This document shows, piece after piece, positions 1 to 19,925 of a stretch of DNA of 21,659 nt. Both the position numbers and the translations under genes were made by a program. Position 1 is the stretch's first letter. The number at the start of each line of letters is the position of its first letter. Origin of the DNA: a virus (taxonomy: Duplodnaviria; Heunggongvirae; Uroviricota; Caudoviricetes); the IMG/VR virus record IMGVR_UViG_2541047437_000015. One strand, written 5' to 3'. Below the pieces are notes generated by a model that worked only from the letters and a program-made list of their open reading frames with translations, searched no databases and was not told the origin of the DNA.

Positions 1-750
1 TAATCGTGACGTTGTTGAGCGTCCCGGAGTTCGCATTCACGTTACCGCTGATATCGGCATTTTTCGCCGTCAGCCGCCCGTCCGGTGTCAGGGAAAATGC
101 CGGAGGATTACCGCCGCTGGTAATGGTGGGAGCCGTCAGATATTTCAGGAACACTTCATTCATGAATATCTGATCGCCCTGACCAACAAACATCGGCTTT
201 GTGTTGCCATTCGCAGGATTAATCATCGCAATCCTGTCTGCTGCCAGCAGCACCTGACTCTGCATGCCGTCGGGGGTGTTCTCAATACCGGCACCGATAC
301 CCGCAATATAAAGGCGTCCGTCCTGCATCTGCTGCAGCTTCACTGCCCACATGCTGTTCAGGTTATTATTTGTATCAACCTGAACCTTCTGTATCTGCTG
401 GATCGCTGCACTCTGGTCTTCCAGTTTCTTATTGACGGTCTGTGTTATTTCATTGCTGACATCCGTTATGGACGTCCTGATTTCAGTCAGGTCAGGCGCA
501 AGCTGACCGTTATCAATCTGAGTCCACAACTCCTGAGCCAGATGGGTTTTCCCTATCTCTCCTTTGAAAAAATCCAGATAGCCTGATGCATCATCACTCG
601 GCTGACCGACAGCCTCCACAAATGCCGATTTGCCAACGGTGTTCACACTGCGGATATAAAAGTAATAATCATGGCCCGGTTTGATATTGATACTGGCAGC
701 TATCCAGTACAGCGCCGAGCCAAGATAGCGGGTATAGCGCGGCGATTTTT
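1..750 (-). pseudogene. Fragment of a lambdoid host-specificity / tail-tip protein J-like gene, runs off the window start; upstream part replaced by the Mu-like prophage end (boundary approximate, 730-775)
   Basis: Not in the ORF track because its stop lies outside the window. My own minus-strand translation reads ...[53 protein letters not shown]...[31 protein letters not shown]...[41 protein letters not shown]..., which I recognise as the C-terminal third of lambda-family J proteins. No plausible start or N-terminal ~800 aa is present. Confidence 0.55.
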
Positions 751-2946: not shown

Positions 2947-2987
2947 CCCGCCAGCCATATCATGACCGGCGGGATTTTTTTATTCTG
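2947..2987 (+). terminator. Plus-strand-oriented intrinsic-terminator-like hairpin (CCCGCC...GGCGGG followed by ATTTTTTTATT), directly abutting the esterase stop codon
   Basis: 6-bp GC stem with a ~15-nt loop and a T7 run on the plus strand. On the minus strand, where the neighbouring genes lie, the A-run precedes the hairpin, so it would not act as a canonical terminator for them. Confidence 0.4.
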
Positions 2988-5019
2988 TTACCGCTTTTTT
3001 CACTTCCACCACAATGCTGTCAATCAGCACCGGGTAAGTTGCATTTTTTGTGATATCCGTTACGCGGAGTTTGTCCACCGGGAAAGTTCCTACTGGTGAC
3101 TGCGTCAGGGTAAACGCGGCACCATCCTGACCATCAATAACCGGAATAACCTGAAGGCTGTTATTTCCTGCAAAACGGAAGGCCAGCGTATGCCATTCAT
3201 TATCAAATGCACCAAAGGTTCCCAGTTTCTGGTTATTTGTTGCCACTTTTGCATTGTGGTACATCACATTCAGGTCTTTTGCGTCTGTCTGGATGTAGAA
3301 CGATGCCAGCAGATTATTCCCTGCATCCCCTGTCAGGGTGACACCCTGCGGCAGAGAGGAAACCGGCCAGTAAAGCCCCATGACATACTGGTTTGCCACC
3401 AGGTCGCCAGGTACTTTAAAACGACAACTGATTAAACCACCATTTTTCAGCAGTTCAGCACCAGTACCGGCATCATGATCCAGATACCAAGATGATTTAC
3501 CTGTTTCCTTGGTCAGTTTCATTGCCTTACCACCTGTGCCTCCTGCATCACTGATAATTTCAGCTTTACCGCCAGCCGGCTCCCAGCCCTGGGCTTTCAG
3601 ATTTCCTTCTGACTCACTGACACGATAAGACAGCAGTGTTGTGGTTACTGCTTCAGTTTCTGAAGGTGACGGCACTGGTGCTTCAGTTTCAGAAGATGGA
3701 ACATCGGCTTTTACTGTGGTTCGCCCCGCATGAGTCAGAACTGCCGTGGCCAGACGGTCGGAAATAATCCCACGACGTGCCCATGAACTGAAATGGCTGG
3801 CCCGGTCCGCAGATGTCCAGGTGGCGGCACTGTTACGCCACGTTGAGCCGTAATAACCAATGGATTCAATATCCGGGTCTTCTGCCGGATTGTTGGTGGG
3901 TACATTCGCGTCATTTTCATCTGTCATTAATGGAACGAAATGAATGTTTTTATCTGTTTTGTTTTTGTAGCCGCCATAGATTGCCTGGTATGCCGGTTCA
4001 TTTTTCTGTTTCCAGAAATACGTGGTATCGCCACAAATCCACGGAACGCCAGCAGCACTGCCACCGGTACACTGTTCCGCCTGTTCAGCCAGGTCTGCGC
4101 GGAATTTTTCCACCATCGCCAGAAACAGCGCGGAATGCTCCGTCGGCTTCGCATCAATATCAAACTCGCCCTGCATCCACACCACAGCAAGCAGGCGGTT
4201 TTTCGGGTTCTTCGCCAGTGCCGCTTTTGTCCGGCTGATTAAGTCCTTATACAGCGGCTTATCCACACCCCAGCGGGCTGAGTCCTCTGAAGCACCCGTG
4301 CTGTCACTGTACGTGCCGTCAGCACCCGCCGTGAATGCAGAACCACCACGGCAGCAGGGAACCAGCAGAATCCCCGCATCTGCCGGAATAAACGGCAGCA
4401 GTTTTTTGGCAATGTGAAGCCCCTGACCCACGGTGCCATATTGCCCTTTAGCCACATCCGCTTTCGGGTGATTTTTTCCACTCATATCCTGCACATCATG
4501 CAGACAGTGGTCGGCCAGAATGATGTCGTTATACTGACAGGCTTTACCTCCCGGCGTGACTGTACTGCGACGGGCTAACTGCATAATACGCGGTTCGGGG
4601 CGGTCATATGTCTCCGGCAGTGGCAGACCTTCACCGTAAGCCATACCGTTTGACTGACCAGCAAGAACCACCACGTAATACCAGGAAGGGGAGCTGGAAG
4701 CAGTTTCATTTCCTGACGGACGGGTATGTGTTTCAGCATTATCCCAGTCTGACGGTTCAGCAGTACCGGCAACATCAGCACTTAACGGAATGACCGCACC
4801 AATACCCGCTCCGGTAATTTCCACACTCGGATCACCGGATACTGGCCTTACCCACAGGCAATCCCGTGTATTAAAACTGATGAGACAGTCAGCAAATGTC
4901 ATTCCTCCTTTTGTTTCGGCCGGAGGAAAGGGAGCCTCAAGAAATGCCGCTGTACCACCGGAAACTTTAACAGTAAAGTTTCCGGGCATTGATGATAGTT
5001 GAACCCATTTGGACGTCAT
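2980..5019 (-). CDS. SGNH/SASA-family esterase, putatively a sialate O-acetylesterase-like (NanS-p-like) protein, with a C-terminal lectin/carbohydrate-binding-like domain
   Basis: 679-aa ORF. VVVLAGQSNGMAYGE contains the GQSN nucleophile motif typical of SASA/SGNH esterases. A Ser/Thr/Glu/Pro linker (SETEAPVPSPSETEA) precedes a ~200-aa beta-rich C-terminal domain. This architecture resembles the prophage-borne NanS-p esterases of E. coli. Confidence 0.6.
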   Translation of the reverse strand: MTSKWVQLSSMPGNFTVKVSGGTAAFLEAPFPPAETKGGMTFADCLISFNTRDCLWVRPVSGDPSVEITGAGIGAVIPLSADVAGTAEPSDWDNAETHTRPSGNETASSSPSWYYVVVLAGQSNGMAYGEGLPLPETYDRPEPRIMQLARRSTVTPGGKACQYNDIILADHCLHDVQDMSGKNHPKADVAKGQYGTVGQGLHIAKKLLPFIPADAGILLVPCCRGGSAFTAGADGTYSDSTGASEDSARWGVDKPLYKDLISRTKAALAKNPKNRLLAVVWMQGEFDIDAKPTEHSALFLAMVEKFRADLAEQAEQCTGGSAAGVPWICGDTTYFWKQKNEPAYQAIYGGYKNKTDKNIHFVPLMTDENDANVPTNNPAEDPDIESIGYYGSTWRNSAATWTSADRASHFSSWARRGIISDRLATAVLTHAGRTTVKADVPSSETEAPVPSPSETEAVTTTLLSYRVSESEGNLKAQGWEPAGGKAEIISDAGGTGGKAMKLTKETGKSSWYLDHDAGTGAELLKNGGLISCRFKVPGDLVANQYVMGLYWPVSSLPQGVTLTGDAGNNLLASFYIQTDAKDLNVMYHNAKVATNNQKLGTFGAFDNEWHTLAFRFAGNNSLQVIPVIDGQDGAAFTLTQSPVGTFPVDKLRVTDITKNATYPVLIDSIVVEVKKAVTE

Positions 5020-5118: not shown

Positions 5119-5679
5119 TTATTTTTCCGAAACGCTCGCAGGATAATAACGATAAAGGGTTGAAAGGCCGATATCAAAAATAAGTGCCACCTGTCTTCGA
5201 CTGACACCCCCGGCCAGTAAACGCCCGACCTGCTCGTATTGTTCCTGCGTGAGACGACGGGGTCTGCCGCCGGTTCGTCCCCTTTCACGGGCAGCTGCAA
5301 GACCAGCCCGTGTCCGTTCGACAATTAATTCACGCTCCATTTCTGCCAGCGCACCCATTATGTGAAAAAAGAAGCGCCCCATGGGGGTTGACGTATCAAT
5401 GTTGTCAGTAAGACTACGAAAATTTATCCCCTGTTGCTGTAATTCATCTGTCAGCGCAACAAGGTGGCGCATACTGCGCCCCAGCCTGTCCAGTTTCCAG
5501 ACCATCAGTGTGTCACCGGGTTTTAGTTTCTTCAGTGCCCGCTTCAGTCCCGGCCGCTGTGTCGTTTTACCACTCATTTTATCTTCAAAAATCTGCTCAC
5601 ATCCTGCACATTCCAGCGCATTTCTTTGTAAACCTGTGTTCTGGTCATTTGTTGATACGCGTATATAGCCAATCAGCAT
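5119..5679 (-). CDS. gin: Gin/Pin/Cin/Hin-family serine DNA invertase
   Basis: 186-aa ORF. MLIGYIRVSTNDQN...VWKLDRLGRSM...FRSLTDNIDTSTPMGRFFFHIMGALAEMERELIVERT is near-identical in pattern to Mu Gin, with the catalytic Ser in the RVST motif. RBS AAGGAAGG 8 nt upstream. Lies adjacent to a gix-like site. Confidence 0.9.
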   Translation of the reverse strand: MLIGYIRVSTNDQNTGLQRNALECAGCEQIFEDKMSGKTTQRPGLKRALKKLKPGDTLMVWKLDRLGRSMRHLVALTDELQQQGINFRSLTDNIDTSTPMGRFFFHIMGALAEMERELIVERTRAGLAAARERGRTGGRPRRLTQEQYEQVGRLLAGGVSRRQVALIFDIGLSTLYRYYPASVSEK

Positions 5680-5733
5680 GTATTTACCTTCCTTAAAAAG
5701 AGGTGGAAAGGCCTTTTAAAGCAGATATACGGC

Positions 5734-5760
5734 ATCCCTGAAACCTTCGGTTTACGGGAT
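5734..5760. other. gix-like recombination site A (gin-proximal): ATCCCTGAAACC-TTC-GGTTTACGGGAT, 12-bp half-sites with an atypical 3-bp spacer
   Basis: Imperfect palindrome read directly. The inside half GGTTTACGGGA is identical to the inside half of site B. It resembles Mu gix TTCCTGTAAACC-GA-GGTTTTGGATAA as I remember it. Confidence 0.6.
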
Positions 5761-6105
5761 ACTGTAAACAGGGCCGCGAATGCCCTGCCATCGAACGGAG
5801 CGGCTGTTGCAGCGAATAAACTCGCCACTCCAAGAAATATTAATGGTGTCCCATTTGACGGAACGCAGGATATAAATATTACATCGGGGATGACGCAGTC
5901 TGTGGCTGACTCACGTTATGTTCAAAGCATTCGAAGAGGTTCAAGGTCAACGATTGGAATGCAATATAATATTTTTGAGGTTCCTGACGGATGCGTACTT
6001 ACAGGGCTTGATGTCGCTGGTGATGGTAATGCAACGGTAACCGCATATTATCGACCTGTTCAGTTTCTGATAGATGGTTCGTGGAAAACAGCTTCCAGCG
6101 CATAA
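5749..6105 (+). other. Silent alternative tail-fibre C-terminal cassette (S'-variable arm); in frame from the gix core, no start codon of its own
   Basis: Translation from 5749 reads GLRDTVNRAANALPSNGAAVAANKLATPRNINGVPFDGTQDINITSGMTQSVADSRYVQS...YYRPVQFLIDGSWKTASSA, paralleling the C-terminus of the expressed fibre (GLRETVNKAADALPSGGTAVAANRLATPRNINGVPFDGTLDINITSGMTQSTADGRYVQ...YYRPVQIYINNAWRTVSSV). Track ORF 5890..6105 is its 3' part. Confidence 0.7.
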
Positions 6106-6184
6106 AAGTGCAGTAGTTCAAAAAACAGATTATCTGAATAAATATATGATGATTTTGTCTTTTCAACAAAAACAAGGTGAAATA

Positions 6185-6706
6185 ATGGAGCTTATTAACG
6201 TAAAACGATATTACCCGGAACACAAACCCTATGGTGAGGATGTTCAGTATTTCCAGAGTGAGGACGGAAGGGATTTTTATGAATCTATCCCGCTTTTCAC
6301 AAAGAAATACAAACTCTGTATTTCGCCTGTAACGGGTATTATCTGCTCTGTTGCTGAAGATGTCTCTGCTTTATATCCGGCAGGTTTTACTGTTGTTGAA
6401 GTGGACGAACTGCCGGAAGGTGTGAATATTGACGGTAACTGGCAGTTTTCTGATGGCCTGATATCAAAGGTGCCGGTAAACTGGAAGACGGTTGCTGAAA
6501 AGCGCCGCTCATCGCTGCTCCAGGAAGCCAACGAAACTGTGGATGACTGGAAAACGGAATTAAAACTGGACATGATTAGCGATGAAAATAAATTACAGCT
6601 GACGCGCTGGATGGCGTATATCCGACAGCTTAAAGAAATGCACTTTAATGATATTGCCAGTGAGGGGCATTACCAGGCGATTCCCTGGCCGGAAAAACCG
6701 GAATAA
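6185..6706 (+). CDS. Tail-fibre assembly protein (Tfa / Mu U'-like chaperone) belonging to the silent cassette
   Basis: 173 aa from ATG 6185 (AAGGTGA RBS). The C-terminal half has the pattern I associate with lambda-type Tfa proteins. It immediately follows the plus-strand fibre cassette. Track ORF 6074..6706 is over-extended at the 5' end. Confidence 0.75.
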   Translation: MELINVKRYYPEHKPYGEDVQYFQSEDGRDFYESIPLFTKKYKLCISPVTGIICSVAEDVSALYPAGFTVVEVDELPEGVNIDGNWQFSDGLISKVPVNWKTVAEKRRSSLLQEANETVDDWKTELKLDMISDENKLQLTRWMAYIRQLKEMHFNDIASEGHYQAIPWPEKPE

Positions 6707-6711
6707 TTCAG

Positions 6712-17574: not shown

Positions 17575-18135
17575 TTACAGTTCCTCCGGCGGTTCGACCG
17601 CCGTTGTCGTGTTCCCCGGCAAATCAATATGTGCCTCAAACGGCGGCGTACCGGGCGGCTCCACAAAGGTTTCGTAATGACGCAGGAAGTCGTCCAGCGA
17701 GCTGGTATCGGTCAGCGGTGCGATCATTTCCTCGCAGGAGAAATAAAGCGCATACATCACCGCACCACTGTCCGCCTGGGTTTCGGTGTAACCGTTGACC
17801 GCCTTTTCAAAGTAAAGCGGTGAGGTTTTTTCTGTTCTGAAGCCGTTAAGCACGGCAATCAGCCGGGCCACAATCTGATACAGTCCGGGACGGCTGGCCT
17901 CACGCCCGTTGAGCATGTCGCCGATGACGTAGAACACCCAGTGACTGACCAGGCGACCACGGGTACGGCCTTCACCGGCACCCAGCCAGGCAACGTAGAT
18001 CGCCGGGGCGTTAATCAGCATGGTGCGCAGTACGCTGTCGCTCCAGTCGCCGGGATGCGTGTCAACAGACACCAGTTCATTCCCGAAATACTCACGGATA
18101 CGGGCGATGTATGCCTGTTCGGTTTCCGTAATCAT
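17575..18135 (-). CDS. Tail completion / terminator-like protein (Mu gp37-like)
   Basis: 186-aa ORF at the position of Mu gp37 upstream of the sheath gene. Confidence 0.55.
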   Translation of the reverse strand: MITETEQAYIARIREYFGNELVSVDTHPGDWSDSVLRTMLINAPAIYVAWLGAGEGRTRGRLVSHWVFYVIGDMLNGREASRPGLYQIVARLIAVLNGFRTEKTSPLYFEKAVNGYTETQADSGAVMYALYFSCEEMIAPLTDTSSLDDFLRHYETFVEPPGTPPFEAHIDLPGNTTTAVEPPEEL

Positions 18136-18551
18136 ATGAAGCCCTTCTGGTTGCGCCCGAATACCGCTGCATCAGACTGAACCTGTGGTAAATCCCCGGA
18201 TTCAGGGGCCGCACCGTTCGTATCCACACCGACCGGCACATTGCCGTTCATGACATCTTTCAGCCAGGCCAGCGCTTCACGGTAACGGTCACGCGCCTGA
18301 TCGGAGGCTCGCTGATCGCACAGGTAATAAAAGGCAATCGCGCAACAGTGCTGAACAAGAACGGCCGGAATAACCTCCAGCGGCAACGTGTAACGGGCGG
18401 ACAGATAGCTGTCGATAAGGGCTGACGCATCTGTCAGCGCCCGGTTCAGCTTGCGCGTGTCCGGCTCATCCGAACGGGGCACAGCCAGTAACGGCCTGAG
18501 CAAATCCTCGCGGTAACGCGCCCGCATATCGGTTTCAGTGGCGTAATTCAT
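18132..18551 (-). CDS. Head-tail joining protein (Mu gp36-like)
   Basis: 139-aa ORF with 4-nt overlaps to both neighbours; position as in Mu. Confidence 0.55.
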   Translation of the reverse strand: MNYATETDMRARYREDLLRPLLAVPRSDEPDTRKLNRALTDASALIDSYLSARYTLPLEVIPAVLVQHCCAIAFYYLCDQRASDQARDRYREALAWLKDVMNGNVPVGVDTNGAAPESGDLPQVQSDAAVFGRNQKGFI

Positions 18552-18934
18552 GCACGGGCCTGTTCCGCTTTGTTACCGGTCTTTTTCCGGGGAGCATCCT
18601 GTCCGGCTTCGGCTTCGGCTTCGGCTTCGGCTTCGGCTTCGGCTTCGGCTTCGGCTAAATCTGTACCGGCCACTGCATGAACCACACCCGCCACGCTCCC
18701 CGCATCATCAGCAGACGTCTGTAGTATTCGCACAGTGAGGCATGGCTCCTCCTCCAGTCGGGCAAGCTGCTCCGGGGTGACCTCAACCTGCTGACGTCCA
18801 CGCGTGAACAGGAACCCCGCACGACGAAACGCCGAACGACTGCAACGCACTTCTGCCAGCACCGTGACAGAATTGTCACCACTGACCTGAAGACCTGAAT
18901 CATCTGTTGCTGCCACAGTGTGATGTTCATTCAT
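18548..18934 (-). CDS. Small head-associated protein (Mu gp35-like) containing an (Ala-Glu)x8 repeat
   Basis: 128-aa ORF downstream of the major head gene. Contains the in-frame hexanucleotide repeat at 18605-18655. Confidence 0.5.
   Translation of the reverse strand: MNEHHTVAATDDSGLQVSGDNSVTVLAEVRCSRSAFRRAGFLFTRGRQQVEVTPEQLARLEEEPCLTVRILQTSADDAGSVAGVVHAVAGTDLAEAEAEAEAEAEAEAEAGQDAPRKKTGNKAEQARA
18605..18655. repeat. Hexanucleotide tandem repeat (GGCTTC)x8 plus a partial unit, encoding (EA)8 on the minus strand
   Basis: Read directly: cggcttcggcttc... Perfect copies, in frame. Confidence 0.95.
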
Positions 18935-18977: not shown

Positions 18978-19925
18978 TTACAGATAATCCGCGACAACCA
19001 GCTCCAGCTTACCCTTCATCTCGTTAGAGACGGTTGCGTTTCCGTCTGCGAACAGTTCACGCTCCAGCAGCTGCACCGCCTGTTTTTCCAGCGAGGTGGG
19101 GACAACAATATGGGTGGGTTTAATGCCGAGTTTGCGGCCACCGTCAGCGGTAAATTCGCGCATGGCTGACCAGCCGTGCCACAGTGCATCCAGCGTCAGC
19201 GGTGACTGCATCATGTAGGCCATCTGCCAGAAGCCGTAGCCCACATTGCGACGGGCGGATGCACCAAACACAAATTCGTTATCGGTGAATGCGCGACCTT
19301 CATCGACTTTGGTCTGGGCAACCAGTTCAGCCTTACGGCGATCCTGATAAATCAGCGGTTTTACCGCGCGGGAGCAGTCAAGCAGATACCAGGCCGGACC
19401 GCTGTAATCAGCCTGTGCGCCGACAGAGCCGGTTTTTGCCACAAACATATTGCTGACCATCTGCGCATCCCCGGAGCCATCCACTTTGGGGTAAACCGGA
19501 TGTTCGGTATCAAAGAAGTTCTGACCGTCATAGCAGGCCGCACTGATCCCGTCACGCAGGGCAGCAAAGACCAGCTCATCCGGTTGTACCGCCGCAGCGC
19601 GCCCCATCTCCTGGAACAACGGGGAATAAATACCGAGGTTGTCGTCTTCGAAGTCATCGCGGCTAATGGCGACAGTGCCTTCAAAAGTTTTGTTCACGAT
19701 GGCATAGCCATAGGCTTTCATCTTCTCGATGACGCGGGAGCCGATCCACTCACGGAACTGCGGGAACTGCCCCAGCCAGCCGTAGGTGTTGGATTTCGAG
19801 GTGGAGGGCACGGTCATCGCAATTTTTTTGTACTGCGACGGGGCCATGGACATCCCGGCCTGAAAATCAGAACGGTAGCCCGTCATCAGGGCGGTGATCA
19901 TCGCCGGTGTAATCGGGGTAGGCAT
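18978..19925 (-). CDS. T: Major head (capsid) subunit, Mu T-like
   Basis: 315-aa ORF following the protease/scaffold gene; size and position match Mu T (~305 aa). Confidence 0.75.
   Translation of the reverse strand: MPTPITPAMITALMTGYRSDFQAGMSMAPSQYKKIAMTVPSTSKSNTYGWLGQFPQFREWIGSRVIEKMKAYGYAIVNKTFEGTVAISRDDFEDDNLGIYSPLFQEMGRAAAVQPDELVFAALRDGISAACYDGQNFFDTEHPVYPKVDGSGDAQMVSNMFVAKTGSVGAQADYSGPAWYLLDCSRAVKPLIYQDRRKAELVAQTKVDEGRAFTDNEFVFGASARRNVGYGFWQMAYMMQSPLTLDALWHGWSAMREFTADGGRKLGIKPTHIVVPTSLEKQAVQLLERELFADGNATVSNEMKGKLELVVADYL

Follow-up and report, generated by a model that had tools for sequence, protein, structure and literature searches.

Isolates of enterohaemorrhagic Escherichia coli (EHEC) are typed in Japan by MLVA (multilocus analysis of variable-number tandem repeats), and one of the markers in use, EHC-5, is the locus reported here: a perfect hexanucleotide array inside a gp35-like gene of a Mu-like prophage, carried on a viral stretch of 21,659 nucleotides (IMGVR_UViG_2541047437_000015, called the window throughout). 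EHC-5 goes back to Izumiya et al. 2010 (Microbiol Immunol 54:569). Its primers are given in S5 Table of Hirai et al. 2023 (PMC10062581), whose scheme is presented there as modified from that of Izumiya et al. (2010, 2020). In the strain table of that study most O157 isolates score 0 (no product) at EHC-5, other O157 isolates score 2, 3, 5, 6, 7, 9, 10, 11, 12, 13 or 14, and isolates alike at all 16 other loci may differ at this one (CEC18128 with 5, CEC18136 with 9; PMC10062581). EHC-5 was used there as a size marker only; its protein context, a gp35-like protein with a FluMu_N domain and an acidic tail predicted with low confidence, was worked out here. On the protein side, the systems to compare are gp35 of phage Mu, the FluMu gp35 HI1506 and, more distantly, gp39 of the Pseudomonas phage JBD30.

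Tandem Repeats Finder (TRF) detected a single array in the window, at 18604-18656, with period 6, 8.8 copies, 100% matches, 0 indels and a score of 106, and both EHC-5 primers have exact sites around it:

18604..18656, minus strand: perfect hexanucleotide variable-number tandem repeat (VNTR), MLVA locus EHC-5, as judged from TRF, the sequence, shuffles and copy number elsewhere
18565..18587, plus strand: exact site of the EHC-5 reverse primer CCGCTTTGTTACCGGTCTTTTTC (0 mismatches, single site, 0 expected by chance)
18705..18727, minus strand: exact site of the EHC-5 forward primer ATACTACAGACGTCTGCTGATGA (0 mismatches, single site, 0 expected by chance)

The amplicon delimited by these sites (18565-18727) is 163 bp long and brackets the array. 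Because both primers match exactly and enclose the array, the repeat is the locus EHC-5. At the DNA level there is no difference between the marker and the array of the window, and the published scores, null or 2-14, fit a mobile prophage whose copies carry 1-17 units. The repeat and its length variation are already known, as the published typing marker, and routine surveillance has in effect been making, from 2010 onwards, the comparison of copy number among relatives that a preliminary description of the window had proposed. As EHC-5 has served molecular epidemiology of Shiga-toxin-producing E. coli for that long, little in the repeat itself is new; what the present analysis adds is the protein context and some practical caveats for typing.

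On the plus strand the array reads (GGCTTC)8 plus partial units, and on the coding strand (GCC GAA)8 GCC, which encodes (Ala-Glu)8-Ala at codons 94-110 of a 128-aa open reading frame (ORF). The preliminary description had placed a perfect GGCTTC x8 at 18605-18655; TRF and the sequence agree with it, and this interval corresponds exactly to codons 94-110. It had also reported an in-frame (Glu-Ala)8, of which the reading frame, the unit and the copy number stood, whereas the strict register is (Ala-Glu)8-Ala. The longest perfect period-6 run spans 53 nt, the runner-up elsewhere in the window 14 nt, and in 500 shuffles no such run ever exceeded 18 nt; the array is far beyond chance. No other substantial tandem repeat was detected by TRF within the window or in the whole of the related FRIK2069 prophage. 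The ORF ends in ...TDL(AE)8A, after which come GQDAPRKKTGNKAEQARA and the stop codon. Two further ORFs, one on the plus strand at 18550-18738 with Arg-Leu repeats and one of 91 aa on the minus strand ending at 18655, were dismissed as by-products of the repeat and of an out-of-frame reading of the real gene.

Copy number was then compared across E. coli. A 1794-nt query was searched against 5426 complete genomes and matched 234 of them, with match lengths of 1761-1851 nt in steps of 3 or 6; the locus is present in just 228-234 of these genomes. Thirteen further copies were fetched and compared together with FRIK2069 (14 loci). All contained a perfect (GGCTTC)n, with n = 1, 2, 4, 5, 8, 11, 12, 13, 14, 15, 16 or 17, and all kept the reading frame intact up to a common stop; the 12-nt flanks of the array were identical in 13 of the 14 loci, with one substitution in the remaining locus. 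An allele spectrum was inferred from match length in 53 full-length matches, sampled evenly among 229 matching records; it extended from 1 to 17 units with no dominant class, the n=1 allele accounting for 6 of the 53. Among the matches listed, every length difference was a multiple of 3. The near-clonal cattle strains 114 and 131 carried 14 and 13 units, respectively, at the same chromosomal site in genomes whose lengths lie less than 100 nt apart. Representatives of protein clusters revealed further alleles with variant units (Ala-Gly, Glu-Val, Glu-Ser), some of them tandemly expanded themselves. The preliminary description had expected a tract that varies in length among related prophages while staying in frame, and this expectation was borne out by the 1-17 units between conserved flanks; an identical number in all homologues was not seen. 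An assembly artefact was ruled out as the source of the variation by the agreement of many independent complete genomes and by the sizing of PCR fragments in the MLVA literature. One E. coli allele, P0073, reads ...AVWWFMQPAGTKPKPKPDEGYSRKKTGNK...: its repeat stretch is translated in another frame as (Lys-Pro)n before the normal frame returns, which implies either two compensating frameshifts or sequencing errors.

In our view the array is very probably a coding VNTR, neutral or nearly so, that resides in the gp35-like gene of an Sp18-type prophage and varies by slippage, the resulting tail lengths being tolerated. Identical GCC-GAA units would misalign during DNA replication (slipped-strand mispairing), so that whole units would be gained or lost. 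As the unit comprises two codons, slippage never breaks the frame, and the only change to the product would be in the length of the acidic (Ala-Glu)n tract, which is predicted to lie, with the folded FluMu_N domain before it and a short basic terminus after it, within a C-terminal tail modeled with low confidence. The protein itself is probably a dispensable capsid accessory, judging from its homology to JBD30 gp39 and the position of its gene, in which case length changes would be tolerated and could pile up fast. Length changes that are tolerated and accumulate quickly would be the reason why EHC-5 works as an epidemiological marker. That the units are identical and use the same two codons throughout points to slippage with continual homogenisation and not to peptide selection alone.

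The gene and its neighbors are arranged as follows:

18548..18934, minus strand: 128-aa Mu gp35/HI1506-related protein (ECs_4975 in Sakai Sp18; RefSeq 'HI1506-related protein')
18551..18607, minus strand: conserved basic C-terminal tail AGQDAPRKKTGNKAEQARA of this protein, codons 110-128 (Ala110 also belongs to the array)
18132..18551, minus strand: downstream gp36-like head-tail adaptor gene, whose start overlaps the stop of the repeat gene (ATGA)
18978..19925, minus strand: upstream gpT-like major head subunit gene (Pfam PF10124, E 6.6e-119)

The repeat-bearing ORF is thus flanked by a gpT-type major head gene and by Gp36-/Gp37-type genes. Since the array is a simple-sequence repeat and the gene that contains it shares an ATGA with the start of its neighbor, it might be taken for a phase-variation switch, acting on the repeat gene itself or on the translationally coupled gp36-like gene. 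A 6-nt unit inside the ORF cannot shift the frame, however, and all 14 fetched alleles run in frame to the common stop, with length differences in multiples of 3 among the matches listed. Positioned about 54 nt before the start of the downstream gene, the array also leaves the ribosome-binding spacing of that gene unaltered. A switch of this kind is effectively refuted and its probability close to nil.

The preliminary description had called the protein Mu gp35-like. This was confirmed by the FluMu_N domain (PF17891), which scored 35.2 bits over aa 36-72 (Pfam cut-off 25.8), and by tblastn, in which the protein matched gene 35 of Mu, D108 and SfMu. In PHROGs it belongs to family 3622, function unknown. 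An AlphaFold2 model computed with a 10-sequence alignment contained a confident beta-beta-alpha-beta fold at about aa 21-75 (predicted local distance difference test, pLDDT, 84-92 over aa 21-70), and pLDDT was below 50 for aa 79-128, the tract included; the tail is therefore likely to be disordered. The architecture of relatives was taken from a single-sequence HMMER scan of 1.84 billion representatives, which returned only 14 matches and gave no lead on function. Relatives in Edwardsiella, Salmonella, Serratia, Erwinia, Citrobacter and others have a length of 140-183 aa; the FluMu_N domain is followed in them by an acidic linker rich in Ala, Gly and Pro and then by a helical domain that is conserved at the C terminus. 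Alignment of the Sp18-type protein with them extends through ...DDAG.VAGVVHA and is lost thereafter: the C-terminal helical domain is lacking, and (Ala-Glu)n stands in its place, followed by a basic tail 18-21 residues long. Two forms of this tail occur, ...KAEQARA and ...KAKQAKKARA, the latter longer by 3 aa, a 9-nt difference that is separate from array length.

Mu gp35 (136 aa; FluMu_N 40.8 bits) has the layout of these relatives, including the C-terminal helical domain that is absent from the Sp18-type protein, and its gene occupies the same position between the major head gene and gp36. The repeat sits where the Mu gp35 family has its acidic inter-domain linker, and no tandem dipeptide repeat was found at the linker position in any other lineage examined. 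LAEAG occurs once in the linker of Mu gp35, and the E. coli allele with n=1 reads DLAEAGQD. This suggests that the array grew from one pre-existing Ala-Glu, although the codons are not the same in the two phages. The tract had previously been termed an EA linker; the term fits as far as the homologous inter-domain position in Mu gp35 and HI1506 is concerned, but not for the protein of the window, in which no C-terminal domain follows the tract, only the basic tail. HI1506 (FluMu gp35, PDB 2OUT) was the only close solved relative (E 1.6e-4 with the single sequence, 1.2e-10 with the family profile). Its two domains, the C-terminal one being present, are reportedly joined by an unstructured linker of about 30 residues.

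The missing C-terminal helical domain, which Mu gp35 and all other lineages examined possess, raises the question of whether constraint has been relaxed to the point that the gene is a degenerating remnant and the repeat mere junk in it. Ratios of nonsynonymous to synonymous substitution (dN/dS) that are not clearly below 1 for close pairs, as well as the occasional frameshifted variants P0073 and P0082, are in line with such decay. However, the 14 loci and the full-length protein clusters share an uninterrupted ORF whose start, stop and basic tail do not differ; the prophage around it has a complete complement of Mu-like genes, and the many insertion sites indicate recent mobility. The most divergent pair gave a dN/dS of 0.47, and dN/dS was uninformative overall. 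Decay of a non-functional gene is, on this balance, distinctly unlikely.

The function of the protein is described inconsistently by existing annotations: ECs_4975 of Sakai (19049-19435 in L016) is entered as 'DNA processing protein' and the RefSeq protein as 'HI1506-related protein'. One GenBank record of Mu annotates gp35 (gene 35, 1456-1866 in L015) as a head-to-tail connector complex protein. In the 2025 cryo-EM study of Mu, gp35 was not located on the capsid or connector, and cement proteins were not seen on the capsid (PMC11915804). The A1 family profile matched chain B of 8RKC, gp39 of JBD30, with E 0.001 and an hhalign probability of 92%; gp39 scored 23.5 bits against FluMu_N, below the cut-off of 25.8, and it was not recovered in fold searches. 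In JBD30, gp39 is a minor capsid protein whose gene immediately follows the major capsid gene; it forms trimers with a Soc-like beta-tadpole fold at the threefold and quasi-threefold axes, is missing from about half of the particles and is likely dispensable according to the authors (PMC11445458). It appears to share with the Sp18-type protein a domain with the motif RRAGF...EQL..L..DP.L.V, the homology being distant, and in both cases the gene comes right after the one for the major capsid subunit and encodes a small fold of beta sheet plus helix with a long extension, disordered in gp39 and probably so in the Sp18-type protein. The extension is N-terminal in gp39, which has no repeat, and mostly C-terminal in the Sp18-type protein. 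From gene position and this distant homologue, the label 'structural gene' used in the preliminary description may be appropriate. With moderate confidence, the Sp18-type protein is most likely a dispensable accessory protein that associates with the capsid and exposes its tail, which would explain the tolerance of 1-17 units.

A location on the capsid also opens an adaptive reading, in which the number of Ala-Glu units is selected for the reach and negative charge of a tail present in hundreds of capsid copies, and would alter how stable virions are, how they aggregate, or how they adhere to mucus or cells. Compatible with such tuning are the wide, flat allele spectrum of 1-17 units, the retention of the array in prophage lineages only 86% identical in DNA (11 units in L012), the conserved basic tail after the tract, which makes translation through the tract seem to matter, and the trimers with which the homologous gp39 decorates its capsid. 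A flat spectrum of units that are perfect at the DNA level is, however, also what drift at high slippage rates predicts; the n=1 allele is common (6/53), hence a long tract is not required, and display on the capsid is itself putative. We therefore consider adaptive tuning unlikely, and it is very improbable that the EHC-5 tract serves a capsid decoration protein as a rapidly evolving tuning knob, an idea for which only the likely location of the protein speaks. If it did, and if the protein formed gp39-like trimers on a T=7 head, each Ala-Glu unit would add some four hundred negative charges and lengthen a surface brush, and the phage population could explore virion stability or adhesion without point mutation. 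The natural alleles of 1-17 units constitute a ready-made tolerance series for studies of the gp35 family or for the search for a capsid display site.

The element that carries the locus is an Sp18-type Mu-like prophage of E. coli, annotated copies of which encode a Mu-type transposase, a transposition ATPase, gam, mor, head and tail genes, a gin-type invertase, com and mom. Over the 301 nt that surround the repeat, the window and O157:H7 Sakai (gene ECs_4975) show 100% identity, the 8 units included, and the left flank of the window (1-732) differs from the insertion sites in both Sakai and FRIK2069. This flank is a fragment of the gpJ tail-tip gene of a lambdoid prophage, found with 97.8% identity in thousands of genomes, so that the Mu-like copy of the window is nested inside another prophage, whose J gene it disrupts. 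The junction between this flank and the Mu-like prophage was not found in any complete genome of the collection. A Mu-like phage inserted in Shiga toxin (Stx) phages is likewise annotated in the GenBank records LC727895 and LC727881. The prophage was present at many different chromosomal positions and in one case on a plasmid, with up to 4 places occupied within a single genome, and the element is therefore mobile in nature.

These properties bear on the use of the marker. O157-3, O157-9, O157-17, O157-19, O157-25 and O157-37 are typed beside EHC-5 in one MLVA scheme (PMC10062581). Unlike them, EHC-5 rides a transposable Mu-like prophage and can be absent, move, or occur up to four times per genome. 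The other markers just named are also built of 6-bp in-frame units that mutate by slippage. The null alleles of EHC-5 arise because the marker rides such an element, and its presence in up to four places per genome suggests that one strain could give several EHC-5 amplicons or alleles; caution is advised against treating EHC-5 as a stable chromosomal locus. Many database proteins annotated as 'partial', among them P0055, P0062, P0063, P0069 and P0070, start or stop within the Ala-Glu tract (P0055 alone has 82 member sequences), which suggests that short-read assemblies break at the EHC-5 VNTR. Draft genomes, like in silico MLVA, probably under-report the long EHC-5 alleles, and such apparent contig breaks may cause in silico MLVA to miss them. 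EHC-6 had been suspected from joint null alleles to lie on the same prophage; its primers were absent from the whole FRIK2069 prophage, in which TRF found no second array, and the strain table shows that the two loci are present independently of each other (PMC10062581), so the linkage was rejected.

Two regions of the window distant from the repeat were also annotated. Within 5119-7706, a gin-type serine invertase gene at 5119-5679 (Resolvase and HTH_7 domains) adjoins a G-segment-like region; imperfect inverted repeats at 5740-5924 and 6946-7130 (185 nt, 77% complementary) lie among opposite-strand tail-fibre and fibre-assembly genes, and the arrangement probably serves, like that of Mu, to switch host range by inversion. 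Between gin and com/mom, a gene at 2980-5019 on the minus strand encodes a 679-aa protein with a carbohydrate esterase domain of the SASA sialate-O-acetylesterase type and DUF6645; the gene appears to be cargo carried by the Mu-like prophage.
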